Notes: a model not told the origin generated them from the letters alone. 63,485 nucleotides of DNA, filler included, from Anaerolineae bacterium (GCA_029262755.1; 8 parts of 8 records of this genome joined end to end with filler, not necessarily neighbours in it); one strand, 5' to 3'. Positions 13,205-60,409 are shown, counted from the whole stretch's first letter. Made by a program: numbers and translations.

Positions 13205-13304
13205 NNNNNNNNNNNNNNNNNNNNNNNNNNNNNNNNNNNNNNNNNNNNTTAATTAATTAANNNNNNNNNNNNNNNNNNNNNNNNNNNNNNNNNNNNNNNN
13301 NNNN
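13205..13304. other. artificial contig linker
   Basis: N-run, TTAATTAATTAA, N-run; 100 bp. Confidence 0.98.
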
Positions 13305-19742: not shown

Positions 19743-19842
19743 NNNNNNNNNNNNNNNNNNNNNNNNNNNNNNNNNNNNNNNNNNNNTTAATTAATTAANN
19801 NNNNNNNNNNNNNNNNNNNNNNNNNNNNNNNNNNNNNNNNNN
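19743..19842. other. artificial contig linker
   Basis: N-run, TTAATTAATTAA, N-run. Confidence 0.98.
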
Positions 19843-20015
19843 ATATCAATTCCTTCCATCGTTTGTCTGAAGTTTCTTTGTGTTATAGTTGTATCATTGG
19901 TGTCGCTGATGTCACGTGTCTGAAAACTCAAACCAAATTCAAGTGAAGAACTATCAGTAATATCAAAATAATTTTTTAGATGTGCCAGATATATCTGATC
20001 CTTACGTTTTGATAA
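19843..20015 (-). pseudogene. start-less fragment resembling an outer-membrane beta-barrel protein
   Basis: Hand translation LSKRKDQIYLAHLKNYFDITDSSSLEFGLSF...MEGID, preceded directly by an in-frame stop and a tandem duplication. Confidence 0.35.
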
Positions 20016-20016
20016 T

Positions 20017-20085
20017 CATAAACCTTCTAATGGGTGACATAAACCTTCTAATGGGTGACTACAATATGGAGTTGACTACAATATG
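20017..20085. repeat. 21-bp tandem duplication followed by a 13-bp direct repeat
   Basis: CATAAACCTTCTAATGGGTGA x2; TGACTACAATATG x2. Confidence 0.85.
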
Positions 20086-20589
20086 ATTACAGTAGATTTT
20101 ACAACTAGTCTATTCTGTGCAGTGAATTCTTGTCAATGTGGTTATGGTTTTTAAATTCTCTATTATCCAACACTTATGAATTTTTGTTAAGGACAAGCTT
20201 GAAATGTACAATTTTGGCTTTGCTTTCCTATTGATTACATTCGTATTTCTGAATATAATATTATGCAGTATTTACACTTACAGTATAAACAAACGCTTTT
20301 TCCAAAAGTTCCACCTTTGTTCCCGTATGGTTGTCAATGTGGATTTCATTGAGATCCCGGGATAGAATGTTGCCGTACTCCGCGGCAGATACAGAATTAT
20401 ATATCCAGGATTTCGGGCATTCCTCGCTCTTGTTATATATCAATAAAATTCATCCCCCTAAAATCCAAGAGAAAGTAAACAAAACGAACCCATGCTGATA
20501 AATTATTATGGATATTAGTATTGAATGAAATTTTGCGAGGGACAGGGTTTTGCCTTATCAGAACAAAGAGTCTTTTTGCACTATTTGGT

Positions 20590-21777
20590 TCAAGATAATC
20601 CTTTTATTTTATTAGAAAGTTGTTTTCCCATTTCGACTATTTTTTCGTGGTCATCGGTCGAAGGAGGACCCTTTACCTCAAGCGCCCCCACTAATTCAAT
20701 TTTAGTCGGCCTTAGGATTTCCAATGCTTGCTTAACGGCCCCTCCACCCCATCCATAAGAGCTAAGGACTACGCCGTATTTTAATGGCGGACGCAATACT
20801 TTTACCAGGTAAGCGGGAGTTATAGCAAGAGGGTGCATTCCTCCTAATACTGTTGGTACTCCAAAGACAATTGCAGACGAATCAACAAGGTCTTTAGCTA
20901 TATCACCTATATCTGAGTTGGAAATATTATATAAATCAACTTCAATCTTCTCCGATAGTAGTGTTTCAACCATTGTCATTATCATTTCTTCCGTAGAGTT
21001 CCACATACTAATATAAACAACTAATGCCTTTTCTTTAGTTTCACCGGCAATCCATTTACGATAAGCACCAAGGATCCTTTCTGGATTTTTATAAATAGGA
21101 CCATGACTTGGAGCAATAATCTCGATTTTTATGTCTTTTAGTTTTTCAAGTGCTTTCCTACCCATATTTCTAAAAGGCATCATTATTTCTCCGAAGTACC
21201 TCTTTGCAAAAATTAATATTTCCTCAACTTCATCATCGAAAAATCCAAAAGCGGTGTGGGCCCCAAAAAAATCGCAGGGGAATAAGATCTTATTCTCAAC
21301 AAGATATGTAAACATGGTTTCCGGCCAGTGGAGCCAAGGTGCTTCTATGAATTTTAGGGTTTTACCACCAAGTTCTATAATATCGCCATCCTTAACCGTC
21401 TTTATTCTTTCTTCCGATACCTTATAGAAGGTCTTTGCCATACTGGAACCTTTTTCAGTTGTAATGAGCAATGCCTCTTTGTTTCTTTCCATTAAGTATG
21501 GGATTGCACCGGCATGGTCTGGTTCCGCATGATTCATGACAATGTAATCTAAGCTTTTTAGTTCTATTACCTGGCTAATTTTCTCTGCCAATTTCTTTTC
21601 AAATCCAGGATTCACAGTATCGACAAGGGCAGTTTTTTCCTTACCAATCACAAGATAGGAGTTGTACGTTGTTTCCTGGGGAAGAGGTATCAGTGCATCG
21701 AAGACTTTTCTGTTCCAATCCTTTACGCCTACCAGAAATACATTTTCAGATAATTCTAAGACACTATATCTTTTCAT
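20590..21777 (-). CDS. fprA: flavodiiron protein (A-type flavoprotein)
   Basis: TYNSYL, NHAEPDH, LHWPETM, CDFFGAH, PSHG and a C-terminal flavodoxin domain (SYGWGG). Confidence 0.95.
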   Translation of the reverse strand: MKRYSVLELSENVFLVGVKDWNRKVFDALIPLPQETTYNSYLVIGKEKTALVDTVNPGFEKKLAEKISQVIELKSLDYIVMNHAEPDHAGAIPYLMERNKEALLITTEKGSSMAKTFYKVSEERIKTVKDGDIIELGGKTLKFIEAPWLHWPETMFTYLVENKILFPCDFFGAHTAFGFFDDEVEEILIFAKRYFGEIMMPFRNMGRKALEKLKDIKIEIIAPSHGPIYKNPERILGAYRKWIAGETKEKALVVYISMWNSTEEMIMTMVETLLSEKIEVDLYNISNSDIGDIAKDLVDSSAIVFGVPTVLGGMHPLAITPAYLVKVLRPPLKYGVVLSSYGWGGGAVKQALEILRPTKIELVGALEVKGPPSTDDHEKIVEMGKQLSNKIKGLS

Positions 21778-22038
21778 TTTTCATATATGCTTGAATAGGA
21801 TGATAAAAATTGCTTTTAAGGAGTGATTTATTAGGGATGTTATATCTGGGATTAATCTCTCTGGTATCTTCAATTCCATCCATTTCACCGTTTAATATTA
21901 TGTGTTGCTTATATAAAATACTATTGAAAGTCGTTTTATGTGTGATTCGTTTCTGTCTGTTTGCCTGCCTACAAGCAGAAATTGAAAATGGGTATGTATT
22001 CGTAATCATTGTAATACGATATAAAATTACAATTTTGA

Positions 22039-22257
22039 GAAACCTTAGCAGTAGTTCAGCTATCTAAACTTAAGTGTAGTACAATAAAAAGTATAAGCAA
22101 GGATATATTAAGTGATGAAATTGAAGATGAAGAGTTCCTTGAATTTGCTATAGACAATTTAGATGAGTTATCTTCATATATCATTAACGGTAATTTAAAT
22201 ATAAGGATTCACAGGGATATTACAGGTGAGATGTGGTTTGGAGTGGCTAAGATTTGA
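22039..22257 (+). pseudogene. start-less acidic ORF remnant of unknown function
   Basis: Open frame ...KDILSDEIEDEEFLEFAIDNLDELSSY...IRIHRDITGEMWFGV with no upstream start. Confidence 0.3.
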
Positions 22258-22552
22258 ATTGGAATATTTGTAAATCTTTATTAAGGCCAGCGCTATAAAG
22301 GCCGTTTTCATTGAAACAGTCAACAAGCTTTTTATCAGTGCCTTGAATGTGGTTAATTAACCACCACTTTAAGTATTCAAGTATTTCATTTGCAACTTGA
22401 TAATCACCATTAATTACCTTGTTAATATTAGCAACCGCTTTATCTGTGAAATCGAGGTGTTCATTTCTATGTAATTGAAACTCTGGAAAATTGAACTTTA
22501 TCATGTAAGTCTCTTCAGTTGCAAAATGCTTAAGGGCATACTTAACCATTTC
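22247..22552 (-). CDS. bacteriohemerythrin (5' truncated)
   Basis: HFATEE, HRNEH, WLINHIQGTD iron-ligand motifs. Confidence 0.92.
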   Translation of the reverse strand, partial: EMVKYALKHFATEETYMIKFNFPEFQLHRNEHLDFTDKAVANINKVINGDYQVANEILEYLKWWLINHIQGTDKKLVDCFNENGLYSAGLNKDLQIFQFKS

Positions 22553-22652
22553 NNNNNNNNNNNNNNNNNNNNNNNNNNNNNNNNNNNNNNNNNNNNTTAA
22601 TTAATTAANNNNNNNNNNNNNNNNNNNNNNNNNNNNNNNNNNNNNNNNNNNN
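22553..22652. other. artificial contig linker
   Basis: N-run, TTAATTAATTAA, N-run. Confidence 0.98.
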
Positions 22653-39186: not shown

Positions 39187-39286
39187 NNNNNNNNNNNNNN
39201 NNNNNNNNNNNNNNNNNNNNNNNNNNNNNNTTAATTAATTAANNNNNNNNNNNNNNNNNNNNNNNNNNNNNNNNNNNNNNNNNNNN
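39187..39286. other. artificial contig linker
   Basis: N-run, TTAATTAATTAA, N-run. Confidence 0.98.
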
Positions 39287-42200
39287 TGGTACTCGCTGTA
39301 GATCAGCGGCCCGAAGGCCACCTGGTTGCCCGAGCTGTACACCGCTTCGGTCGGGTCGTAGGTGTAGTTGATCTCCGCCGGCTCGCCGACGTAGGTCATC
39401 AGCACATCGCGGCCGACGATGTCCACCGCGATGCCCATGATCTGGCTCGAGCGCAGCCACGCCGAGCCCTGGAAGTCCGGGCCCACGCAGTCGCTGGCCG
39501 CCAACTGGTAGCTCTCGCCCGGCGCCAGCGTCAGGATCTCGCAAATGCTGGCCCGCAGACACGCGTCCTGCTCCTGGAACCACACCTCGATCGACGAGCA
39601 CTGCAGCCCGCCGTTCTGGATGTACATGATCGACTCGAAGCCCGACGCGTCCGCATACACCAGCGGCACGTAGTAGCCGTAGCCGCCGAAGACCTCGTCG
39701 AACACACCCAGGTGCGTCCCCGCGATCCCGTTGTACTTGCTCGTTACCTCCACGCCCGGCGTCACGTCGCCCGGGCACGTGCGGTGGACGTCCACCGCCA
39801 GCGCGCCGTCGCCCTTCGCCCGGTCGTCCAGCACCACGCCCGCGAACTCCAGGCCTTCGTCGTAGGCCTTCTTGAAGCGCCGATAGTCGTCCGCGTCACC
39901 CACGACGCCGAAGAACAGCGTCTCGCACAGGTAATCGCCCACGATATCGTCGAAGCCCAGATCCACGCCGATGTCCGAAAGCTGCTCGGTCGTGAACTGG
40001 AACAAGATGCCGCTCTTGGAGCCGGTCGGCACCTGCGCGCCGAGCAGGTTCCACGTGCTGCCCGGCTTGAGCATGCCCGTGCACTCCACCTTCAGCGGAC
40101 CCGCGGCCTGCGGCGGGCAGAAGCCCGGCTCGCCCCACGTCACCAGCGCCGCCTTCGCAAAGTCGCAGCCCAGGTTCTGGACCTCGACCCAGGTCTCGCA
40201 CACGTCGTCCTGGCCCAGGAAGTTCAGGATCGGGATGTGCACCTGCCGGTCCAGCTGGGTGTTGGGATCGATGATCGGCTCGCAGTTGAGCAGCATCATC
40301 ATGTTCTCGGAGAAGCCCGCGATCTCGTTCTCGCCCGCGTTGCAGGTGTCCGTGCGGACCATGCCCATCAACGCGAACTCCGTGCCCACCGGCAAGCCGC
40401 CGCGGATGCGCGCCCGGTAGCGGATGCGCACGTGCGCACCGGCCTCGATCCGGCCGTCCCAGCGCACTTGGCGCTCCGTGATGCGGCAGCGTCCACCGCC
40501 CATCAAGACCTCGCAGGATCCCGGTAAGCCCACGACCGTGTCGGGCAGCGGCACTTCGAACTCGGGGCCTGGATTGTCCGGCTGCGCCGTGAACGCTTCA
40601 GGTCCGGTGTTACCGAAGAGTTGCTCGACCTCGATCTCCTCGCCCGCGGCGATGCACTGTTCTTGGAAGGTAGCTTGGACGTCGGAGCGATCCGCGGCGC
40701 CCGTCGCCCTTGCGGACGGCGCTGGCGAACCTCCGCGATCCGCGCCGCCGGCAAACAAAGCGGGACCACCATCGCCGTGGTGCGACATCAACTCCGCCAT
40801 CCAGACCTCGAGATCCGCGCCGGCCAAGACGTCCGTCTCTACCGTAATCTCGTTGTTCGTGAGGTCTGGGTCCGGAAGGCAGTTGCCCGCCGAACGCAGC
40901 ATGGTCATCACACCGGCGAGCGGATCGCCCGTACACGGCGCAATCGAGCACATGGTGCTGCTCCCCACCGCAACCGTCACGACGAGCGACGCGCTCGACG
41001 CGGGCGCCGCCGGGTCGCAGGCGTCCGGCGCGCCGAGCTCGCCCAAGGAACACGTGACGCCGTCCTCGTCCGCGACGCAGGTGGCCGCCGCCCCCGTGGC
41101 CGAGAGGAACTTCACGTTCGGGTCCAGGTCGAGGCGCAGCTCCGTCTCGCGGCTCGCGGAAGGACCGAGGTTCTTGATGTCGATCGCGTAGCTCATCTCG
41201 GCACCGGCCATCACCGGATCCGGCGAGTCCGCAACGGTCACCGCTAGATCGGCTCGGGTGGCAAGCTCCACATCGAGCGTCGCTTCGTCGTTCTCGGCGT
41301 CGCGCTCGGCCTGCCGCGTTGCGGACGATGCCGTGGCCGTGAAGGTGAGTTCTTCGCCGCACGCGGGATCACCGCAGCTGGTGAGCGCGAGATCGACGCG
41401 CCGCGCAGCCCCCGCGAAGGACGTACCCGTCCACGTGCATACGACCGTGCCGCCGCGTGCGTCGGCGGCCGGGGTCGTGCAGGTGCCGGCGCCGTCCGGC
41501 GTGGCCGACACGAAGCGCGCGTTCTCAGGCAGATCGACCGTTAGGGTCAGGTCGTCGGCGCCGTAGGGACCTTCGTTGCGCGCAATCGCCGCCACGCTCA
41601 TCGCGCTACCGGCGACGACCGGGTTCGCCCCAACCACTTCGATTGTTGCCGCCACGTCCGCCATTGTCGGGATCCGGAACACATCGTCCGGAAGCTCGTC
41701 GCCGATGTCGGTGTTGCGCCGGATGAGGTCGGCCAGGGTTGTCGCCTCGATCTCGTCGCGCTGCGCGCCGGAGAAGGTGCGACCGTACCAGAAGGCGTCG
41801 CAATCACGCAGCCTGCGGAATTGATCGCCCAGAATCGTGAACACCAACTCGCCCACCATCGCGCCCGGCATGTGGTCTTCCGCCAGCCCGCCGACCCACA
41901 CATCCATGTCGGCCGGCGTGGCATAGGCCGTAGCCAAGCGCGCCTGCGTGTCCGCGTCGGCGGACACGGCGGCGAAGGTGGTGTTCGCGCTTAGCCCCAA
42001 GCCGGCGCGCGTTGCCGCGTAGCCGGGCAGACCGTGATCGCGGCCGCGTTGAATGTTGAGCGCTGCGAGATCGAAGCCGCCGGCACCCGGTGGGCCAAAC
42101 AGGAAGTTGCGCACCGCGTCATCAACCCGTACATCGACTTCCTGCGAAGGGTTGTAGGCCAAGCCGCGGAGCAAGGGCTCGAGACCGCCTTCGTTAACCA

Positions 42201-43067
42201 GCCGATCAGGCCGGAAGAACGCGCTGAGCAAGGGCAAGTGTCCCTCGGCGATCGGCGCAAGGTCGGCGTCCAGACGCAGCAGGTCCGGCGTCAAGGTGCT
42301 ATGCCCGAAGCGATAGGCCGCCGTGCTGAAGACGTTGGCGATGCGTGCGTCGCAGCTCGCGTCGTAGCCGCTGTAGGGGGCGATCGCGCTTGGGCCCAGC
42401 AACAACGGCAGAAACTCGTTGAACGTAATCGCCTGCACGTGAGCGCCCACCCATGCCCGCGCGAGCTCGTAGACCGCGTCGGCGTCGAGCGCAGGCTGCG
42501 CGGCGCGGATCTGCGCCGCGCGGCGGTTGTGCTCGCGCACGAGAAGCGTGTGCATCGCGGTGAGCCCGATCTGCTCGTTGGCCCGGACGTCGCCGGCCAG
42601 GAAGAGCGTCGCGCCGGGACCGCCGGCGTTGGGTAGGCCGAAGGTATTGAGCGGCGGCAGATCGCCGACCGGCGAGGCCGCGACGCGCAGGTTTCCCGGC
42701 ACGTCGGGGTCGCGGAGCGTATCTGCGCGTACCGCATCGGAGCCGTAGACCATCGATGCGTCGATCCACGCGGTGATGCCGTTGGTCTGCTGGCGACGCG
42801 GCACGGCGGAGAAGGAATCGGTATCCAGCGTCCACGTCGAGCGGTCGAGGCCGATAAAGGGCGCAGGCGCGAAGTGCGGATCGTCGACCGGCACGGGAAT
42901 CCCAAAGGACTCCGGCGGCACGTGCCCCTCGGTGAGATCCATGTCGTGGTCGACGAACTGGCCCCATTGCCACAGGTACGACGAGGCACCGGCCGCGTTC
43001 AAGGTCCGGCCGGTCTGGCTCGCAACCGCATTGCTGACCGCACGCGCGCTCGGCCGGCTTGCGCCGG
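39287..43067 (-). CDS. animal-type heme peroxidase fused to DUF11-like Ig repeats and a Cys-rich C-terminal module (truncated at both ends)
   Basis: WGQFVDHD, TAWIDAS, GDVRANEQ, AYRFGHS, NIQRGRDHG; then ADLAVTVADSPDPV...NLGPS repeats. Confidence 0.88.
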
Positions 43068-43167
43068 NNNNNNNNNNNNNNNNNNNNNNNNNNNNNNNNN
43101 NNNNNNNNNNNTTAATTAATTAANNNNNNNNNNNNNNNNNNNNNNNNNNNNNNNNNNNNNNNNNNNN
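43068..43167. other. artificial contig linker
   Basis: N-run, TTAATTAATTAA, N-run. Confidence 0.98.
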
Positions 43168-44211
43168 GAAACTATGCGATTTGTTAAAGGCCTATACAAT
43201 GAAAATAAAAAAGGGTTTGTTCAGACTAAACTCCACAAGAAACCTTCGATGCATGCCGCTCACTGTGCAATAGGAATTGTAGCTTTATTGTACAAACCTC
43301 ACAACATAGATAACCGAGTAGATTGGAGTAAGCCTATTGGGAGAAGTCAACTCCAAAAACATCTAGGTGAGAGAATAGTGAATTCAATAATCAATTTTAT
43401 TATACATGATTGTTACCGTTACGGTGGCTATTGTGAAAGCAAGGAAAGTTTACCAACAATAAATGCAACGGCCTCTGCGTTGTGGTGCTTATGGCACTTA
43501 GAAGCTTTAGATAAAGTAGATGTAACGATATTAAAGCAATTCGTAAATAAAAACGCTGTTCATGAAGATGGTAAGCTCGGCTTTAAAAATGAAGAAAAAG
43601 ATCAAAACGCATGGGTATGTTCCACGTATTATGCATTACGTATTTCTAGAACGCTAGAATCAATTGGTATTGAAAAAGCAATTCCTTTTAAAGGGGAAGA
43701 AATACTATCCTTTCTCTTTGACTGTAAGGAAAACGGAAGCGGATTTAGAGACGCTAGCAATTTAGATTATGAACCAACGATAGTTCACACAAAAGATGCT
43801 CTTGCATTGACTGATGACAAAAAATATTGTTTGCGATTTAATGAATTTGTCAAAAATAAGAATATAGACTTTGAGCAAATGATAAAAGATATCAAGTTAT
43901 TCTTGAAAAAATGTGTCTTTAAAGGTGTATATGGTTTTGCAGAATCAGAATTATATTTCCCTAATGTATATGGAACATTATTGGCAATAGATATAAAGCG
44001 ATTTTTGAAGAGGCTAGAAAACAAAGAAACTGAAGACGTTATTAATAAAGAGCAGCGTAAAGATATCCTTGTATTCCTTAACTCATGTAAGGATGGAGAG
44101 AAAAAAGGAGGATATCGCGGTTACAGTTTAAATCCTAATTATATTTCCGATAAATGGTGGGAAACTGAAAGGGCCAACAGGGAACAATTTATGGAAGTAG
44201 AGCAAGAATGA
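43168..44211 (+). CDS. prenyltransferase/squalene-oxidase-repeat (alpha-alpha toroid) protein, probably 5' truncated
   Basis: Recurrent G(G)F/Y..x6-8..T..AL units: GGYCES..PTINATASAL, LGFKN..VCSTYYAL, SGFRD..PTIVHTKDAL, YGFAE..PNVYGTLLAI. Confidence 0.65.
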   Translation, partial: ETMRFVKGLYNENKKGFVQTKLHKKPSMHAAHCAIGIVALLYKPHNIDNRVDWSKPIGRSQLQKHLGERIVNSIINFIIHDCYRYGGYCESKESLPTINATASALWCLWHLEALDKVDVTILKQFVNKNAVHEDGKLGFKNEEKDQNAWVCSTYYALRISRTLESIGIEKAIPFKGEEILSFLFDCKENGSGFRDASNLDYEPTIVHTKDALALTDDKKYCLRFNEFVKNKNIDFEQMIKDIKLFLKKCVFKGVYGFAESELYFPNVYGTLLAIDIKRFLKRLENKETEDVINKEQRKDILVFLNSCKDGEKKGGYRGYSLNPNYISDKWWETERANREQFMEVEQE

Positions 44212-44319
44212 TTATTAGTGTCAATCCATAAGTTCAGGTCTAAGTTTATCACAAATCACTTTAATAAAAACTATTTACTAATCTACTGCACAAATCTTTA
44301 TTAATGGATTTTCTATACC

Positions 44320-44610
44320 TTACACTTGTTGCTTTCTCCTCGCATCTAGAACTTTGCTGAAATCAATCTCTACGTATTCAGAATTCCACTCATTATAAAA
44401 AGAGGTATTATCGCTGCTTGATTTAGGTCCAGGTGGATCAATTTTTATTCTCGTAGGCATCATTACCGAATCACTAAGTAAGATACATTCTCCTCTTCTA
44501 AGAGTCGAAAACATACTTACTATTCCTCTAATTGAGTCAGGCAGCAAATTTTTAACATATGCTTGGTCATCAGGGTTAGTAATTATTAAGTATAAAAAAG
44601 TATTACATTT
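44320..44610 (-). pseudogene. C-terminal remnant of a HerA/DUF87-like ATPase
   Basis: CNTFLYLIITNPDDQAYVKNLLPD...TLRRGECIL..D..MP. No P-loop; begins at the stop of the upstream gene. Confidence 0.7.
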
Positions 44611-45301
44611 TCCTAAGCACATCCAATAAAACCCAGTCACCAGGAGCACGCTCATATTGCCATGCACTCCATCCATTGGCAGAACGTTTCACAACAGCTT
44701 TCGCTGCGAGTGAAGGAGAGTTATAAAGTTCTTTATTATAGAAAATAGTCCCGTCCTTTCTGACAGTCGCTTTATACATTTTCCCTTTATATTTAAAACG
44801 TATCCTGAAGCTTTTGCTTACATAAGCTGCCAAGATTGGTTTTCGACCTTTAACCTTCTTGATTTCTTTCTTCTCCGTTTTTTTCTCTTTTGTCATCCCA
44901 AGTAGCAATGCCAACTCTTTTTGCTGAGCTTTGGATATCTTTTTCTTAAAAAGTGGCTTGAGGTCTTGAGATTTAATAAACTTGCCTGATTGTCTATTAC
45001 CCTTGGGAGAAGCTATCTTAAGAATGAGGGTTTCAAGCTCTCTTAAATGTGAGTCTTTGATAGTTAAATATACACTGAATGAATCCCAGGTTTTTGCATG
45101 TCTGTCTCTTAAATGTGTGGTAAGTCTATTACGGAGGTTTGATGCCAGACCTACATAACAAAGGTTATTTTTTCTATATAAGGCATAAACTCCATGACGG
45201 CCTTTAACGTATTCTTTTATTATATTTTGATAATTCTCTAACGCCTTGCGGGATATATTTTCAAGATGCTGGCAGACTAATTGTCCTTTGCGAGATTTCA
45301 C
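44603..45301 (-). CDS. GIY-YIG nuclease fused to a RAMA/DUF4357-like domain
   Basis: GVYALY...YVGLASNLRNRL; C-terminal YKATV..DG.I.Y...YNSPSLAA..V..SANGWSAW. GTG start after AAGGAG. Confidence 0.8.
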   Translation of the reverse strand: MKSRKGQLVCQHLENISRKALENYQNIIKEYVKGRHGVYALYRKNNLCYVGLASNLRNRLTTHLRDRHAKTWDSFSVYLTIKDSHLRELETLILKIASPKGNRQSGKFIKSQDLKPLFKKKISKAQQKELALLLGMTKEKKTEKKEIKKVKGRKPILAAYVSKSFRIRFKYKGKMYKATVRKDGTIFYNKELYNSPSLAAKAVVKRSANGWSAWQYERAPGDWVLLDVLRKM

Positions 45302-45410
45302 TGTTCAAGCTCCTTTGTTTTTTTAAACCTAATGGGTTGAGTCGACTGTTATTTTGTAAGATGTGGTTATCATTTTTTACAATCAGAATAAGCTTCTGCT
45401 AATGTAAGCA

Positions 45411-48400
45411 TCAAAACCTTTCCTGAATATACTCATGCTGTTTTTTCCCTTCCAGCATATCTGTAGCTGGTCCACTTCGAACATAAAACTCGGTATCTTC
45501 TAGAAAGCATGGCGCATTTGCCATACCACAATTAACTCGTAACACCTTTTTCCCATCCACTTCTATCAATTTATAATCTATCAATGGATAGAAACCCTCA
45601 CCTACTTTTGACTTAATATGATTCTTGAAATTAAGCAAATACTTATCGTCGTTCTTGTAGAACTTGCTTATTTCGTCATCAACTCCTATGACGTCACCAT
45701 CATCATTGACACCAATTAACAAGTCACCACCTTCTGAGTTAAGAAAAGCTCCTATAGTTTTCAGCGATGATTTTTCAATATATTTTTCTTTGGTACCCTT
45801 TTTGATATCAACCGAAAAAGTTTCCTTAAACTCCAGGGTTTTAGACTCACCTTTAGGTATTAATAATTTGATTTGATCTTCTTCACTCAAATTTTCTTTT
45901 GCTAATACTTTATATAGTTTCTGTCCTAGGTTATCTTGTGCTAAGTCTCTAAACTCTGGATCGCTCATCAAGCGCCCAAATATATCTTCATTCCCCTCCA
46001 TTCGATCAATAACCAAACCCTCAAACAGCTTTTTAAATATTTCAAGAAAATCCCGCATTGAATTGACTTTCGCAGCCTGACGCAAATTATCATCATCTTT
46101 GGCTTCTGCTTCAATCTGGTCAAAGAACAATTGATCCGCCTCAGTGAAGTCAGTACCAAAGCGTTCATTTAAAATATTAATCAACTCAGAAAGACGTATT
46201 TCATCTTCACCTGTCTGACCTGTACCAACATCACTCGGGCCTTTAAGTGGTTGCGCTTCGCCTCCGTATAAATTAATGCTTCCCTCACTAATTTTTTGTA
46301 ATCGGTAATATTCAAGTTCGACTTCATTTTCCAAATGATACGCAGGGCCAGAAGGACGTCTCGGCAACTTAGTCAATAAAAAGCGTAGATAGGTGTACAA
46401 TTTCTCTAAATCTGAATCCTGATATGGAATTACTTGAGACAAGAAAGCATACATGTTTCGGAAATTAACAAACAATCCTTTTATTTCCTCCTGATCGGTT
46501 TCATCGAGTTCTTTATATCGTTCGACTGTCAAATCGAGAATGCCATTCATTCTGGCATGGTCATGTACGGATTCTTTACGCTTCGGAGCAAAATAGACGG
46601 CGCAGAAATCCCTTATTTCACTATCACGAAGTACTTGTCTTTCCTCTATCTGTCCTTGTAAGCGGTACATATGATGAGGATCGGTGAGTTCTTCTGCCTC
46701 TGTCTCTTCGTAATAAGGTTTGAATGCCACAAAAATCTCTTCCCGCGAATTCCTAAAATCCAAAACAAAAGTATCTTCCTTACCTATTGCCATACGGTTT
46801 AATCGCGAAAGTGTTTGAACAGCCTGGATACCCGACAGTATTTTGTCCACATACATGGTGTGCAAAAAGGGTTGATCGTAACCGGTTTGATATTTTTCTG
46901 CCACCAACAATACTCGATATTCTTCTGTATCAAATTTTTCCGGCAGCTCACGCTCACTAATGCCACCATTCATTCCAACTTCTGTATATTTCTTGCCCGG
47001 CACCTTTGGGTCTTCTACAGTACCTGAAAAAGCAACTAGTGTTTTTATATCTGTATATCCTTTATCTTTGAGATAGTCATCAAAAGCTAGTTTATAACGT
47101 ACAGCGTGTAGACGTGACTCAGTCACCACCATCGCTTTTGCACGGCCACCTATTTTATGCCGTACAGAAGCTCGAAAATGCTCAACCATGATCTGTGTTT
47201 TTTGACCGATATTAACCGGATGTAAAGTTAGAAATTGCATCAATTCTCTTGCGGCTTTCTTCCGCTCTACGTTTTTATCATCCGTTACAATATCTGCTAT
47301 ACCGAAATACGTCTCATAAGTCGTATAATTTTTTAATACATCTAGAATAAACCGCTCTTCAATCGCTTGGCGCATGGTATATTTATGAAATGGTGCTTCG
47401 CCGCTAGGGCCGGGTTCATCAAAAACTTTCTTCGTTTTGTACTTTGGTGTTGCCGTGAAGGCAAAAAAGCTGATGTTTGGCTGGCGCCCTCGTTTCATCA
47501 TACTTCTAATGATTGCATCATCTTCGTCTTCGTCATTTTCTGTTATACATAGTGCCGCCTCTTCTTCAATTCCCTCTTTATTCAGCACATACTTCAGCTC
47601 CATCGCCGTTTCGCCGGATTGCGAGCTATGTGCCTCATCGACAATGACCGCAAAACGCTTACCTTTCGTGGATATGGCAACACTACCCTCGCCTTGTTCC
47701 TTGTTTACCTTTTCAATAGTCTCGGTAACAAAAGGAAATTTTTGCACAGTAGAGATAATGATTGGTGTGCCAGTCTTCAAGGCAGTCACCAACTGGCGCG
47801 TATCCTCATCGATTTTCTGTACTACGCCTTGTTTGTGCTCAAATTGATAAATCGTGTCCTGCAATTGCTGATCAAGCACTCGCCTGTCGGTAATCACCAC
47901 CACGGTATCAAATATTTTATTATCATCCGCATCATGCAAGCTTGATAAACGATGGGCCAACCAGGCGATAGAATTGGATTTACCTGATCCGGCAGAATGC
48001 TCAACTAGATAGTTTCGCCCAGAACCATTCTCCTTACTATGGCTAACTATTTTTCTAACGGAATCTAGCTGATGATAACGGGGAAAGATCATCGTTTCTT
48101 TACGGATTTTTTTAATTCCCTTATCCGTCACCACCTTTTTATCTTCCACTTGCAAATGCATAAAGCGGCCTAATATATCAAGCAAGCTATCGCTTTGTAG
48201 TACCTCACGCCATAGATAGGCCGTTCGATAGCCGCCATCTGCTGCGGGTGGATTACCCGCACCACCATTGCAACCCAAATTAAAAGGCAAAAAGAATGTC
48301 TTGGAGCCGCTTAAGCGAGTTGTCATAAATACCAAATCTTGATCCACAGCAAAATGCACCAAGGCGCGTTTCTTAAACTGAAACAGCTTTTCTTTAGGGT

Positions 48401-48920
48401 CGCGGTCGGTTTTGTACTGGTGTTTGGCATCCTCGACCGTCTGCCTCGATAAAGGATTTTTTAACTCCATCGTAATTACAGGCAGGCCATTGAGGAATAA
48501 CACCATGTCCAGTGACTTTTCATTATCGCTAGAAAAATATAGTTGGCGAGTTACGCTTAAGGTATTGTCTTTATACTGGGCCAAAGTATTCGGGTTTAAC
48601 TTAGTGCTCGGCAAAAAGAAGGCTATCCTCAGCTTCTTGCCGTAGCATTTAAAGCCATGACGCAATACATTAAGCATACCCTGAATTTCCAGGGTTTTGC
48701 ATAAATCATCCAGCACAACCTTTTCAGTGTCACTACCGTGTATACCTTTTAGCGCCTGCCATAGCTTATCTTGAGTTTTCTGAATAAAGGAGAGTACACG
48801 AACCGGTTCCAATGCGCGTTCGGTGTCAAAATCGTCAGACTCGCCTTTTTCATAACAGTCTTTCTCTACAAACTGATAATCAATAGCATCTTCCAGACGA
48901 TCTTCGGTATGTTTTTTCAT
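45411..48920 (-). CDS. hsdR: type I restriction endonuclease R subunit with C-terminal Schlafen/AlbA_2 domain
   Basis: DMVLFLNGLP..MELKN, HSAGSGKS, DEAH, FTATP, QTLSRLNR; then GESKTLEFKE...KTIGAFLNSEGGDLLIGVNDD. Confidence 0.93.
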   Translation of the reverse strand: MKKHTEDRLEDAIDYQFVEKDCYEKGESDDFDTERALEPVRVLSFIQKTQDKLWQALKGIHGSDTEKVVLDDLCKTLEIQGMLNVLRHGFKCYGKKLRIAFFLPSTKLNPNTLAQYKDNTLSVTRQLYFSSDNEKSLDMVLFLNGLPVITMELKNPLSRQTVEDAKHQYKTDRDPKEKLFQFKKRALVHFAVDQDLVFMTTRLSGSKTFFLPFNLGCNGGAGNPPAADGGYRTAYLWREVLQSDSLLDILGRFMHLQVEDKKVVTDKGIKKIRKETMIFPRYHQLDSVRKIVSHSKENGSGRNYLVEHSAGSGKSNSIAWLAHRLSSLHDADDNKIFDTVVVITDRRVLDQQLQDTIYQFEHKQGVVQKIDEDTRQLVTALKTGTPIIISTVQKFPFVTETIEKVNKEQGEGSVAISTKGKRFAVIVDEAHSSQSGETAMELKYVLNKEGIEEEAALCITENDEDEDDAIIRSMMKRGRQPNISFFAFTATPKYKTKKVFDEPGPSGEAPFHKYTMRQAIEERFILDVLKNYTTYETYFGIADIVTDDKNVERKKAARELMQFLTLHPVNIGQKTQIMVEHFRASVRHKIGGRAKAMVVTESRLHAVRYKLAFDDYLKDKGYTDIKTLVAFSGTVEDPKVPGKKYTEVGMNGGISERELPEKFDTEEYRVLLVAEKYQTGYDQPFLHTMYVDKILSGIQAVQTLSRLNRMAIGKEDTFVLDFRNSREEIFVAFKPYYEETEAEELTDPHHMYRLQGQIEERQVLRDSEIRDFCAVYFAPKRKESVHDHARMNGILDLTVERYKELDETDQEEIKGLFVNFRNMYAFLSQVIPYQDSDLEKLYTYLRFLLTKLPRRPSGPAYHLENEVELEYYRLQKISEGSINLYGGEAQPLKGPSDVGTGQTGEDEIRLSELINILNERFGTDFTEADQLFFDQIEAEAKDDDNLRQAAKVNSMRDFLEIFKKLFEGLVIDRMEGNEDIFGRLMSDPEFRDLAQDNLGQKLYKVLAKENLSEEDQIKLLIPKGESKTLEFKETFSVDIKKGTKEKYIEKSSLKTIGAFLNSEGGDLLIGVNDDGDVIGVDDEISKFYKNDDKYLLNFKNHIKSKVGEGFYPLIDYKLIEVDGKKVLRVNCGMANAPCFLEDTEFYVRSGPATDMLEGKKQHEYIQERF

Positions 48921-48929
48921 ATTTTAACC

Positions 48930-49166
48930 CTAACCTATAGACTCTATGGCAGCATTTTCTAACTCGTTCAAACTTAACCCATCTATATCTTTATAGTGAT
49001 AATGACGAATTGATGGCTCCTTAACTAAATACTTGTTATCAGCATCTAAGTAACTAGAAGGGTCTTCGCAATAACTTAAAGCATATTTTGTAAGGTTCAG
49101 TCGCTTGCGCTTGCCAGTATAGATATTTATTGTCGCACTAAGCGCCCTGCACCAATCCTCGCTAGA
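48930..49166 (-). CDS. hypothetical protein, C-terminal part (5' truncated)
   Basis: Open frame SSEDWCRALS...NAAIESIG* ending 9 nt before the hsdR start. Confidence 0.6.
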   Translation of the reverse strand, partial: SSEDWCRALSATINIYTGKRKRLNLTKYALSYCEDPSSYLDADNKYLVKEPSIRHYHYKDIDGLSLNELENAAIESIG

Positions 49167-49266
49167 NNNNNNNNNNNNNNNNNNNNNNNNNNNNNNNNNN
49201 NNNNNNNNNNTTAATTAATTAANNNNNNNNNNNNNNNNNNNNNNNNNNNNNNNNNNNNNNNNNNNN
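49167..49266. other. artificial contig linker
   Basis: N-run, TTAATTAATTAA, N-run. Confidence 0.98.
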
Positions 49267-52200
49267 CTTCGTCCTCGCGCAGCCGCGTCCGCCACACTCG
49301 ATTGTTGGACATCGCCGCCACGTTCGGCATCTCGCCGCATAGCCAGCGCCTCGCCTCGCGCGTGGGCCACCATCGCTCGTCCTCGTAGCCGTCCGCGGCC
49401 ATGAAGCAGGCCCATTCCGCGTTCGTCACGGGAAACCTCCCGATCTCGAAGCGCTCCAGCGCCACCCTGTGACGCGGGATGTGTGCCGACGAGACGCCGG
49501 AGCCGCCCGTTGGATGCCCCCAGGCGATCGGATCGTCATCCCCAATCTCGTAGGTCCCGGCTCCCACCGACACCAGCGGCGGCATGTGGTACGTGCCGTG
49601 CGGACCGAGCCTGCGCTCGAAGCGAGGATCGCCCAATGCACCCACCGCGTGGCCGCAGGCGATCCGCGCCCGCAGGTCGGCGCGCGCGTCCTCGGCGCAG
49701 GCGGCCAGCGTGCCGCGCAGCTCGTCGAGCAGCTCGTCCGCAAGTCGCGGCCGCACGTCCGGCTGTGCCGCCACGCGGCCCGCCAACGGAAGGTTCGCCT
49801 CCATGATCCCCCGCACGAAGGCGTCGGGATCCGGCGCCATGGCCGCCGCGAGCAGGGTGGTCTCCTCCCAACCCGTGCCGCTTCGCGGCGGCAGCGGGTC
49901 GGCCGCGCCTAGCGTGTCGATCAACGCCTCGACGCTCGGGTGGATCTCCGCGGCACGCCACGCGGCGCGTACCCGCTCCGGATCCGGCGATCGCGCCAGC
50001 TGCCGCGCCGCGAAGTACTCCTGCACGAGCTGGTGGACATACATCAGCTCGCCGGCCGCCTCGTCCTCGTCCAGCACCGCAAGGGCCGCGCCCGCAGCGA
50101 GGATGGCCTCGTCGGTCTTGCTGTCGAGCATGTCCAGCGCGTCGTCGACGTCGACGCGCACCTGGCTGGCCTCGCCGTCGGCCCGACTGGATTGCATCGC
50201 ATGCGCCAGTGCCGCCAGCTGAGGCACGAGCACCCCGCGTTCGGGCAGGTCGTACGCGCCCTTCCACCGCCACTTGGCCACTTGCTTGAGGTCGCGACCC
50301 GCCAGCAGCAGCCCAGGCTCGAAGAGCGCGTTGCCGCGCTCGATCTCTCGCCGCAGCGCCTGCCTCACGAAGCCCGTGAAGAGACCGACCCGCCCGGTGG
50401 GCATCTCGCCCGTCGCCTCCACCTGCTCGACGAGCAGGACCAGGAAGTAGGGGGAGCGCAGGACCTCCAGCTGGGGGCTGCCCTTCAGGGCGGACCAGAT
50501 CCGGCGATGGTGTCCGGGACTGTAGAGCGCAAGGAAGTCCGCCACCTGGGCATCGGTCAGCGGCTCAATGCGCACTTGCGGCACGCGCAGATCCGGCGTC
50601 GAGAGCGATTGACTGTAGTCCAGCGAACGGCAGGAGAACACGACGCGATTCCCGGCATGCTCGCCGGCAAGGCCGATCAGCCAATCCTTCCAGAGGCGCA
50701 CGCGGCCATGGAAGTCGGCCTCGGAGGCGGCGGGCATCTCGTTGAGCGCATCGAGCAACAGGGTCACGCGGCCCTCGGCGAGGAGCGCTTCGAGCGAAGG
50801 AAGGTCGGGGCAGCGGGCGGACCAGCGCTCGGCGAGCCAGTCGGCCGGCGCCGGGAGCGCCTCGCCGGGGCGTGCCGGCTTGTAGGTATTGAGCGACACG
50901 AGGAGGGTGATCCGGTCGTCTCCCTCGCCGCGCAGCGCGCCGATCGCCGTGTCGAGCTCGAGGCGGCGCAGCAGCGTCGACTTGCCTCCGCCGGGCGGGC
51001 CGAGTACGACGACGGCCGGATGCTCCGTCCTCGACAGCAGCTCCGCCAGATCCGTGTGCCGTTCCTCCGTGGCCGCCCACCGGTCGGTGGCGGTCTCCTC
51101 TCCCTGATCGATCAACAGCGTCAAGCCCACAAAGCGCCCGTCGAGGCGGTAGCGCGCCTGGCTCCACTCGGCGATGCGGCCCAAGCGATAGGTCCGCCAA
51201 TCCGCCGGCTTGTGGCGGGCCAAGGCCGTCGCTTCTGCCGAGGTCAACGTCGCCGTGAGCCCCCCATCCCCCGTGACCGCCGCTTCCAGTCGCGCCCGGG
51301 CGCTGTCGGTGTCGGACGGCCCCTCCCCGGCCTGGCGATCCACCACGCGCACGAAGTCCCGCGGGTGCAGCGCCTCCGCGGTCCGTGGCGGCGTGTCGAC
51401 CTCGGGCATACCGGGAGTCAGGATCTGAACGATGTGCTCCGAGTGCCGCAGGTCTTTGAGGCGGTGCTCACCCCAGTCGCGCAGGCGGGCGTCCTCCGCA
51501 AGATGCTCGCGCACGAGCGTCGCCGTGACCCCGGAGAGCAGCACTTGCCCCCCGTAGCCGGCCGCCTCCAACCGCGCCACCCGGTTGACCGGCTGCCCGA
51601 AGTAGTCGCCGCCTCGCTCGGTGGCCTCCCCGGTGTGCAGACCCATCCGCACGCGCAGGGGTCCGAATCCCTCGCCGAAGACCGACCAGTCCTCCGCCGT
51701 CACGCTGCGCTGCGCCTCGATAGCCGCGGCCAGGCCGGCACCCGCGGTCGCGAAGGCGGCGCAGAATGCGTCGCCGATGGTCTTGAAAACGTGCCCGCCG
51801 GCCGCCGTGACCGCCCGGCGCAGCAACGCGTCGTGGCGCTCCAGCGCGGCGCGCATGGCATCGGGCTGCTCGTCCCAACGCTGGGTCGAGCCCTCGATGT
51901 CGGTGAAGAGAAAGGTGACGGTTCCGCTAGGCGGTCCGATCGCCTCCGCTGCGTGGGCGGCGCGGGCACGGGCTTCGTCGCCGGGCGCTGCCGCTGCGGC
52001 GTCCTCGCCGTCGCTCTGCGATGGGCCCTGCACCGTGACCGACTCAGCCGCCGCCACCAGCGCCCGCCCCACGCTCTCCGCGAGCTGTGCCAACGCCGCC
52101 TCGAAGGGCTGCCCGTGAAAGTCCGTGTACTGGATCCGCCCAAGCTGGAAGTGCACCTTCGTGGGCTCCAGCAGCACCGGCAGGACGGGCGTCCCGCGAT

Positions 52201-52438
52201 CGAGCGCGTACTGCCACTCGTCCTCCACGTTGGACGAGGCCATCGCCGCGGGGGAGAGCACGAGGACGAGCACGTCGGCGGCGTCCAGCGCCGTCTGGAT
52301 CGCCGTGCTCCACTTCGCGCCGCCGTGGATGCCGGCGCGGTCGATCCACGGCTCGATGCCCAGCGGCGGCAGGGCGGCCGCTAGGCGGTCGGCGAAGGCC
52401 TGGTCGGGGCGGGCGTAGCTGAGGAAGGCTTGGGTCAT
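49267..52438 (-). CDS. TIR - class III nucleotide cyclase - NACHT NTPase - FGE/SUMF1 multidomain protein (3' truncated)
   Basis: AFLSYAR...WID...VEDEW (TIR); FLFTDIEGST, KTIGDAF, RMGLHTG, VNRVAR (cyclase); GPPGGGKST, LLLDALNE, HQLVQEYFAA (NACHT); IGRFPVTNAEW (FGE). Confidence 0.9.
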
Positions 52439-52878
52439 GGATAGGCAGGATGCCATGACGATGTCGGCCATGCTATCGAGGGGCCGGGCACCGGGAAGCG
52501 GTTCCGGCCGGCTATGCGGCCGGATGAAACGGCCGCGCACACGATGAGCGCATCCCTTAGGGACACGCTGTGCGGAACCTTCGCCGTCGCGGAACACGTC
52601 ACGGACGGCGGCGCCGTCAACCTGGGCACCGGCCCTTACAACTGCAACTGCGACAACGCGCTCGCCAAGGAGCTGCTGATCACGGAGTCGCACGTGCACC
52701 TAGAGGAGGGGCGTGCGTCGCGCCATCGACTGGTACTATGCATTCCGCGACGGCGCGGACATCCGTCCGGAGCTGCAGCACCTGCTGTTGGAGCGCTAGG
52801 GGGCGCCGGAACCCACGACGAAGCAGCGCCGTCGCTACAGTGGAAACGCGCCCAACCCACCCCATTAGGAGACCCCAC

Positions 52879-60309: not shown

Positions 60310-60409
60310 NNNNNNNNNNNNNNNNNNNNNNNNNNNNNNNNNNNNNNNNNNNNTTAATTAATTAANNNNNNNNNNNNNNNNNNNNNNNNNNNNNNNNNNN
60401 NNNNNNNNN
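60310..60409. other. artificial contig linker
   Basis: N-run, TTAATTAATTAA, N-run. Confidence 0.98.

Follow-up and report, generated by a model that had tools for sequence, protein, structure and literature searches.

In textbook accounts, type I restriction enzymes defend the cell by acting on DNA only, and their one known link to tRNA cleavage, PrrC of EcoprrI, is a separate and unrelated protein. A stretch of 63,485 nucleotides assigned to an Anaerolineae bacterium (GCA_029262755.1), called the window throughout, carries a gene in which a type I restriction subunit (HsdR) is joined in frame to a Schlafen domain of the AlbA_2 type. This gene, hsdR::Slfn, had been noticed in a first-pass annotation that likened it to PrrC, and the present analysis concerns its architecture, its relatives and its possible function.

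Bacterial Schlafens have been described as phage-triggered defensive tRNases with the catalytic motif Ex4(E/D)xK, and the Ex4ExK site is essential for tRNA cleavage (PMC13056530). The pSlfn1-55 set from the same study includes RorSlfn5, in which the Slfn domain is joined to an Ig-like sensor, and EcoSlfn7, in which it is joined to DUF262/GmrSD_N (Taboada et al., Nat Microbiol 2026, PMC13056530). In Cash, a Schlafen-Csx15 fusion, cA4 drives an inactive dodecamer into filaments and tRNA is cleaved; over half of defence-linked Schlafens were tied to restriction-modification (R-M) systems or other nucleases in that report (PMC13462974). SLFN-pAgo cleaves tRNA only upon guide-dependent recognition of a DNA target, the single-lobed bacterial Schlafen domain becoming a two-lobed nuclease through dimerisation, and the same preprint reports a type I S subunit to which a Schlafen-GHKL module is fused (10.64898/2026.05.29.728809). 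Finally, a survey of BREX systems described Schlafen RNases as backup effectors (PMC12839542). The premise of the first-pass annotation that Schlafen core domains are RNA nucleases is therefore borne out for the prokaryotic kind, which has been shown experimentally to comprise phage-triggered tRNases (PMC13056530, PMC13462974, 10.64898/2026.05.29.728809).

The hsdR::Slfn gene lies at 45411..48920 on the minus strand, as do all of its features listed below, and is a single open reading frame (ORF) of 1169 amino acids (aa) plus a stop codon, with an ATG start and zero internal stops. Judged by its sequence, the encoded protein is confirmed as a complete HsdR (PD-ExK nuclease plus superfamily 2 (SF2) motor) with an in-frame Schlafen/AlbA_2 domain at its C-terminus. 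This agrees with the earlier description of a complete HsdR running without a stop into a Schlafen domain; the quoted strings GESKTLEFKE and AFLNSEGG.LLIGVNDD are present in the translation, the nuclease motif, Walker A and DEAH were located, and the HSDR_N, SWI2_SNF2 and SLFN_AlbA_2 profiles all score above their gathering thresholds.

The HSDR_N PD-(D/E)xK nuclease domain occupies residues 114-205 (48306..48581; Pfam E 8.9e-16, with a score of 58.8 bits where 25.1 is the cut-off), with the catalytic residues D138 and E153-x-K155 at 48456-48509. It is followed by the SF2 translocase motor at residues 280-740 (46701..48083), which matches SWI2_SNF2 (283-535, 4.5e-26), ResIII (280-441), DEAD (within 280-535) and T1R_D3-like (664-724) in Pfam, all over gathering score. 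Walker A (GSGKS, residues 311-315, 47976-47990) and DEAH (residues 428-431, 47628-47639) are accompanied by TATP and by Q-x2-S-R-x2-R at residues 702-709; motifs III and VI are present. The HsdR C-terminal region (residues 741-1014, 45879..46700) is without a Pfam family. Unfused relatives stop at about residue 1010-1036, and the passage from HsdR into Schlafen is made by the linker LAKENLSEEDQIKLLIPKG (residues 1006-1024). PADLOC classifies the protein as a type I REase (REase_I, E 2.5e-36). All 77 fused proteins examined retain Walker A, TATP and motif VI, and all but one (76 of 77) retain DEAH; the D...ExK pattern scored across them was loose and says little.

The Schlafen/AlbA_2 domain comprises the last 155 aa (residues 1015-1169, 45414..45878). 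Pfam SLFN_AlbA_2 (PF04326) matches residues 1025-1153 with an E of 3.8e-18 and 66.6 bits against a cut-off of 25.3, covering profile positions 1-114 of 118. The active-site motif E1025-x4-E1030-F-K1032 (E1025-SKTL-E1030-F-K1032) lies at 45825..45848, and a second domain motif, GGDLLIGVNDDG, is found at residues 1064-1075. Window residues 1015-1169 were aligned with the closest domains of 67 proteins (R-, M-, S-, BrxL-, GmrSD_N- and TPR-fused). Invariant in all 68 aligned domains are E1025, E1030, K1032, F1059, N1061, G1064, G1065, G1070, D1073 (45702-45704), G1079 and R1148 (45477-45479), and the E-x4-EFK/D site called intact in the first-pass annotation is thus unbroken throughout. D1073 may correspond to the third catalytic acid of mammalian Schlafens.

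Structural comparison gave the same domain identity. An AlphaFold2 model of residues 1015-1169 built from the 68-domain alignment reached a pLDDT of 94.7 and a pTM of 0.88. Foldseek returned 21 matches against the PDB at E<=1e-3, every one an AlbA_2, Schlafen or SAMD9 structure; the best was 3lmm (DIP2311; E 1.9e-5, TM 0.63-0.65 on query), and others were SLFN5/11/12/13/14, the DNA-binding/tRNase domain of SAMD9 (7ksp, 9o0d) and the RecG-related N-terminal domain 2kyy. At the sequence level, phmmer with the full protein gave no match among PDB sequences at E<=0.001. A profile from alignment A1 recovered HsdM structures, because M-fused rows had shaped it, and weak Schlafen matches (SLFN11 7fex, 4.9e-4). 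Prediction of an AlbA_2 homodimer (two copies, alignment A1) gave a score of 0.01 and a mark of 0.42, which counts neither for nor against dimerisation. By analogy with the tested Schlafens, the domain is most likely a metal-dependent endoribonuclease, specifically a tRNase.

To place the fusion among its relatives, a whole-protein search was scored over 8000 candidates and the 120 best-scoring 90%-identity clusters were analysed. The PF04326 fusion is present in 45 of these best 120 (query included), at 66-100% identity and 1165-1184 aa, with one N-terminally cut call of 964 aa among them. Named carriers are Candidatus Kuenenia sp., Photobacterium lipolyticum, Candidatus Thiodiazotropha and a Cellvibrionaceae metagenome-assembled genome. 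The fused clusters go under the database labels 'RNA-binding domain-containing protein', 'putative DNA binding domain-containing protein' and 'type I restriction endonuclease subunit R'. In the tail, E-x4-[ED]-x-K is kept by 45/45 fused near-clade clusters and by the fused protein of locus L059. The remaining 75 clusters are mostly ordinary HsdR of about 1010-1036 aa. The survey of homologues suggested earlier therefore finds the fusion recurring, in the 45 clusters and also in a second HsdR clade described below.

Among 80 species-representative genome loci of this HsdR family the domain was found in three (L002, L003 and L059), although at least L004, L011 and L013 end inside hsdR and cannot be judged. 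Relative to L002 and L003, the non-synonymous divergence (pN) is 0.056 and 0.098 for the domain and 0.089 and 0.119 for the HsdR core, with synonymous divergence (pS) of 0.56-0.82, near saturation. These values indicate that the Schlafen domain is under purifying selection, constrained like the HsdR body.

An HsdR core tree was computed with FastTree from 125 rows, namely 119 from the set of 120 clusters, P0090 being too short to include, and six second-clade outgroup proteins. The 44 near-clade fused proteins fall in a single 54-tip clade with a support of 99. This distribution fits one capture at the clade base, spread across phyla and repeated loss, and the second HsdR clade would have acquired the domain separately, unless the cassette moved between subunits. 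Other tails occur at the same C-terminal position. In P0054 and P0072, HsdR proteins with 73% core identity, a DUF900 alpha/beta-hydrolase (E 8.9e-48) takes the place of the Schlafen domain, and P0103 has a ~180-aa tail there with no family assigned. The C-terminus of this HsdR family thus seems, from these sequences, to be a slot for exchangeable effectors.

The domain is not restricted to HsdR. A domain-only search among proteins of 642-2046 aa gave 322 matches at E<=1e-3 among 651 candidates, and the best 120 were classified. HsdR-type domains are present in 91 of these, 46 belonging to the near clade (domain 61-100% identical to that of the window) and 45 to the second clade (domain 37-46% identical, HsdR core about 45%). 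Another 19 contain N6_Mtase (HsdM-type, some also with Methylase_S) and two contain Methylase_S and no methylase; the rest include fusions to BrxL (P0137), GmrSD_N/DUF262 (P0139), TPR (P0125) and EAD7/AAA (P0190). In every case the domain forms the last ~155 residues.

In an exhaustive search over all lengths, the number of representatives was 5846 at E<=1e-3, falling to 2820 at E<=1e-10 and to 293 at E<=1e-30. The majority of the best 150 have a length of ~540 aa, with the domain at their end. For 95 of these 150, taken in rank order, Pfam found AlbA_2 in 95/95, Methylase_S in 19, N6_Mtase in 11 and HsdM_N in 8. Of the 142 N-terminal parts with a length of 60 aa or more, 39 matched an HsdS profile built from three genuine HsdS proteins; after iteration 122/142 did, with a median of 391 residues covered, but profile iteration can drift and 39/142 is the safe lower bound for HsdS.

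A maximum-likelihood tree of 68 domains, which is unrooted and built from a short domain with several long branches, contains a well-supported split (97/98) in which every M-, M+S- or S-fused domain falls on the same side as the window and the near HsdR clade. On its other side lie the second HsdR clade (100/100), L059 and the BrxL, GmrSD_N and EAD7 fusions. The cassette is interchangeable among R, M and S subunits.

In plasmids, tblastn with the domain gave no match at E<=1e-10 and seven distant ones (29-35% identity) at E<=1e-4. One plasmid locus is of separate interest: L081, the Pseudoalteromonas nigrifaciens plasmid NZ_CP011038.1 (record 56448-73731), contains an annotated type I operon in the order N-6 DNA methylase with a C-terminal AlbA_2, hsdM, hsdS, a 661-aa 'RNA-binding domain-containing protein' and an unfused hsdR, with a SAVED-domain gene adjoining. 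Two apparent Schlafen-type genes are therefore found within this one R-M locus, and its methylase-AlbA_2 protein is listed as N6_Mtase.SLFN_AlbA_2 in the PMC13056530 supplement.

Genomic neighborhood analysis links the fused gene to the other type I subunits. In all three fused loci the gene is immediately preceded, on its own strand, by hsdM and hsdS, and the gene order in fused relatives with context is hsdM-hsdS-(small ORF)-hsdR::Slfn. The small ORF, orf200 (~200 aa), sits between hsdS and hsdR in L003 (4683-5282) and L059 (4124-4753). The window holds its 3' end at 48930..49166 on the minus strand (78 codons plus stop), cut by the contig end at 49166 and with its stop 9 nt before the hsdR ATG; this fragment corresponds to the orf200 C-terminus, at 46% identity to L003 (E 8e-26) and 38% to L059 (E 2e-21). 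The simplest reading of these sequences is that the window operon would continue beyond the contig end as hsdM-hsdS-orf200.

The orf200 product has no match in Pfam or PHROG, and its family shows a nearly invariant D...E-x-K...Q pattern. Its AlphaFold2 model (pLDDT 81) has its best fold matches among PD-(D/E)xK enzymes, namely the FokI cleavage domain (Z 6.3), Can2, the small subunit of R.BspD6I and Cfr10I, all of middling Z only. On the strength of this model, orf200 may provide these type I operons with an accessory nuclease. It was also considered as a partner specific to the fusion and rejected, as it is present, placed between hsdS and hsdR, in 10/80 loci, 8 of them unfused.

Taken together, we consider with moderate confidence that hsdR::Slfn encodes a working type I R subunit whose C-terminal end is a second effector, directed at RNA. 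The HsdR body would join the HsdM2-HsdS1 core, pull in DNA from unmodified target sites and cut it, and the Schlafen domain would be silent in the resting enzyme. A change in the state of the restriction complex would then switch the Schlafen domain on, shutting down translation where DNA restriction alone may not stop the phage. The switch could consist of Schlafen domains being brought together or re-oriented, like the oligomerisation in the three characterised bacterial Schlafen systems. We infer both the RNase activity on tRNA and the latency of the domain by analogy with the published prokaryotic Schlafens, and in this enzyme the domain would be a latent RNase dependent on the state or assembly of the R2M2S1 complex. 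Because the cassette appears to work on any of the three subunits, the sensor would most plausibly be the holoenzyme rather than HsdR alone.

What turns the nuclease on can be addressed more tentatively. It might be activated by whatever holds the complex in a long-lived 'closed' state, be it unmodified DNA on which the complex is locked or a DNA-mimic inhibitor that jams it; this speculative conjecture is our own and covers both release by inhibition and engagement of unmodified DNA, two triggers that we would guess to be about equally likely. By the same conjecture, and with the same reserve, the cassette could be a portable 'second-strike' module: placed on any type I subunit, on BrxL or on GmrSD_N, it would make the DNA-reading complex the sensor for a tRNase that fires in the long-lived closed state.

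Each trigger may also be considered alone. It is possible, if doubtful, that the protein is a PrrC-like guard whose tRNase is held off by the uninhibited complex and fires only once an anti-restriction protein (Ocr, ArdA or Stp-like) disables the enzyme. PrrC, within the type IC EcoprrI locus and released by T4 Stp, is the precedent (PMC12707154, PMC3710099), and the cassette is placed most often on HsdS and HsdM, which form the core bound by DNA mimics; a backup reserved for failure of the first line also costs the cell least. However, the domain has no homology to PrrC, being AlbA_2 and not HEPN/ABC, no inhibitor sensor is evident, and BrxL and GmrSD_N carry the same cassette. Furthermore, in the descriptions available, the characterised DNA-linked Schlafens are licensed by nucleic-acid recognition (target DNA for SLFN-pAgo, single-stranded DNA (ssDNA) for SLFN11), not by inhibition.

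That last point leads to the other trigger, in which recognition of unmodified DNA together with translocation or collision, the event that also sets off DNA cleavage, would turn on the tRNase independently of any phage inhibitor, a proposal that we regard as possible and no less doubtful. Guide-dependent DNA recognition licenses the Schlafen domain of SLFN-pAgo for tRNA cleavage (10.64898/2026.05.29.728809), SLFN11 is activated by ssDNA at its helicase domain (PMC13056530), and the authors of the Cash study raise the speculation that RM-linked Schlafens respond to structures arising from DNA cleavage (PMC13462974). The full retention of the HsdR motor and nuclease motifs in the fused proteins is in line with such a trigger. 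An enzyme licensed in this way would nonetheless be self-toxic whenever the host chromosome exposes unmodified sites, and it is less obviously useful where restriction succeeds.

It is improbable that the domain is a non-catalytic or DNA-directed accessory, that is, that AlbA_2 only binds nucleic acid as an anchor or sensor at the motor, or acts as an extra DNase, with no translation shut-off. The source annotations ('RNA-binding', 'DNA binding domain') and the entry titles of the SAMD9 AlbA_2 (7ksp) and SLFN5 N-domain (7cux) structures, which mention DNA binding, are what speak for it. Nevertheless, both glutamates, the lysine and the aspartate are invariant over 68 domains in very different host proteins, which is the behaviour of a catalytic site, the PDB now lists the SAMD9 domain as a tRNase (9o0d), and every bacterial Schlafen with the motif whose testing is reported in the cited texts cleaves tRNA. 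The last alternative, two genes fused by a sequencing or assembly error or in a chimeric contig, could draw on the short contig (5999 bp) and mixed bin but is excluded for practical purposes because the in-frame architecture recurs (45 of the best 120 clusters, 3/80 loci and the second HsdR clade), with the same frame, linker and length in 44 other near-clade clusters from independent assemblies, named genomes included.

Several observations weigh against the reading as a working R subunit with an RNA-directed effector. The NCBIfam hsdR model TIGR00348 gives 198.3 bits over residues 114-740 (E 2.3e-58), below its cut-off of 284.55; the lineage of this HsdR appears to be under-scored by TIGR00348 alone, the Pfam and PADLOC family models being passed. 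Within the fused HsdR clade, 10 of the 54 tips are without the domain and nested, including a four-member group of named marine isolates, and the domain is therefore dispensable for HsdR function; the apparent losses P0024, P0025 and P0028 may be truncated gene calls. The window's own system can only be presumed complete, as hsdM and hsdS are not on the contig. AlbA_2 domains have long been annotated as DNA/RNA-binding only, and the database names of close relatives are of the same kind ('RNA-binding' or 'putative DNA binding domain-containing protein'). Finally, both the substrate of the domain (tRNA, other RNA or DNA) and its trigger are assigned by analogy only.

The favoured reading makes the HsdR-Schlafen fusion a testable claim, that an RNase reads out the state of a restriction complex, and the occurrence of the cassette on HsdS, HsdM, BrxL and GmrSD_N helps this claim. 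It also offers a compact system for identifying the activating signal of RM-linked Schlafens, be it unmodified DNA, translocation or collision, or anti-restriction proteins, a question left open by the 2026 papers. If the conjecture of a portable module is true, many type I R-M systems would be combined restriction and abortive-infection systems.

The setting of the gene was examined at the level of the whole window, which consists of 8 contigs strung together and joined by seven identical N44-TTAATTAATTAA-N44 spacers (13205-13304, 19743-19842, 22553-22652, 39187-39286, 43068-43167, 49167-49266 and 60310-60409). The contig holding hsdR::Slfn spans 43168..49166 (5999 bp), has a guanine-plus-cytosine (GC) content of 38.3% and is bounded by a spacer on both sides; its length agrees with the protein database, where the longest contig given for exactly this protein is 5999. 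The two adjacent segments have GC contents of 68.1% and 69.1%, and high-GC segments elsewhere 68-71%. A second low-GC segment, 19843-22552 (35.1% GC), carries a flavorubredoxin-like gene at 20590-21780. Two low-GC segments against 68-71% elsewhere suggest a mixed bin, and the hsdR::Slfn contig may come from an organism other than that of most of the window. The low-GC stretch had been considered as a genomic island in a high-GC chromosome, a view rejected once the spacers were recognised. The hsdR::Slfn contig carries no hsdM or hsdS; both are absent from the window because only 246 bp of contig remain upstream of hsdR. A promoter/terminator scan and a repeat scan of the 5999-bp contig gave nothing exceeding shuffled expectation.

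Three other ORFs lie on the same contig. Downstream of hsdR, at 44603-45301 on the minus strand, is a gene for a 232-aa protein with an N-terminal GIY-YIG and a C-terminal RAMA/DUF4357 domain, for which PADLOC gives PDC-S14, a candidate defence family, as the top match (E 4.8e-18). As a component of the system it was rejected, being present in 0/80 related loci by tblastn. Its 3' end is overlapped by an ORF of 118 codons (44320-44676, minus strand) that matches the last ~95 positions only of anti-phage HerA models (PADLOC HerA, 4.3e-28; NCBIfam HerA_antiphage_2) and by its sequence looks like the remnant of a truncated HerA gene. The third, a 345-aa ORF at 43174-44211 on the plus strand with its 5' end at the contig edge, has a weak match to a prenyltransferase alpha-alpha toroid (E 3.2e-10) and none in the defence library.

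The apparent neighbours beyond the spacers, a TIR-cyclase-NACHT gene and a haem peroxidase gene, are not physically linked to hsdR::Slfn because the contigs are joined by spacers. The former, on a separate high-GC contig (49267-52699, minus strand), encodes TIR_2, adenylate/guanylate cyclase, NACHT and the start of an FGE-sulfatase domain before its C-terminus is cut by the contig end; its domain order resembles a STAND-type defence architecture. The latter, also on a separate high-GC contig (39287-43002, minus strand), encodes DUF11 repeats that come after an animal haem peroxidase domain (E 8e-125), and it is likewise cut by the contig end. ORFs that run across spacers (49211-52699 and 39235-43002) are artefacts at those ends.

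Compared with what has been published, the fusion is not a new kind of system, since prokaryotic Schlafen effectors and their R-M association were published in 2025-2026 and the fusion is present in public databases under generic names. A full-text literature search found no description of an HsdR-Schlafen fusion, and the texts naming both do not concern one (figures, PDF supplements and preprint supplements were outside the search). Similarly, a term search of the supplementary tables of PMC13056530 gave no HSDR_N, ResIII, SWI2_SNF2 or PF00270 entries (PDF supplements were outside the search). Those tables do contain one 516-aa T1R_D3-like+AlbA_2 protein, filed as 'P-loop_NTPase.pSlfn', two Methylase_S+AlbA_2 entries and one N6_Mtase+AlbA_2 entry, none of them discussed in the available portions of the main text; in supplementary file 12 the string 'GmrSD_N' occurs 109 times.

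The pSlfn proteins (PMC13056530) resemble the window protein in having an AlbA_2 nuclease with the Ex4(E/D)xK motif and in uniting this effector with another module in one polypeptide; the GmrSD_N fusion P0139, comparable with EcoSlfn7, is among the closer relatives of the window domain. In contrast to them, the window partner is a complete, motif-intact DNA nuclease-translocase of a three-subunit enzyme, and the Schlafen domain is C-terminal. The reported Schlafens fused to type I M or S subunits or encoded as separate genes (PMC13462974, 10.64898/2026.05.29.728809) likewise couple a Schlafen nuclease to a type I R-M component, and the window subfamily itself also occurs on HsdM and HsdS. Those are, as reported, often accompanied by a GHKL ATPase, whereas in the window the 155-aa domain comes on its own, attached to the R subunit.

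With classical HsdR (EcoR124I, EcoKI and unfused family members of about 1010-1036 aa) the protein shares the PD-ExK nuclease, the SF2 motor and the C-terminal region, and it is 56-74% identical to many unfused relatives; unlike them, it adds a 155-aa Schlafen domain past the natural C-terminus. Human SLFN11 offers a parallel in that a DNA-engaging NTPase controls a Schlafen tRNase, both in one polypeptide (PMC13056530). It differs in its reversed domain order, its other NTPase family and its two-lobed mammalian Schlafen module, and it has no DNA nuclease and no methylation-based reading of self and non-self.

The comparison with PrrC drawn by the first-pass annotation stands in part. The PrrC of the EcoprrI type IC locus and the window protein are alike in their logic, by which a nuclease directed at tRNA would back up a type I restriction enzyme. 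The two are unrelated, PrrC consisting of HEPN and an ABC ATPase (PMC3710099). PrrC is a polypeptide of its own, its gene lying between hsdS and hsdR, and is reported to be triggered by Stp/dTTP, whereas the window nuclease is of the Schlafen type and covalently joined; no HEPN or ABC family was found among the Pfam, NCBIfam and PADLOC matches of the window protein. If the conjecture of a portable module is true, the cassette would be a cis-encoded and evolutionarily independent counterpart of PrrC.

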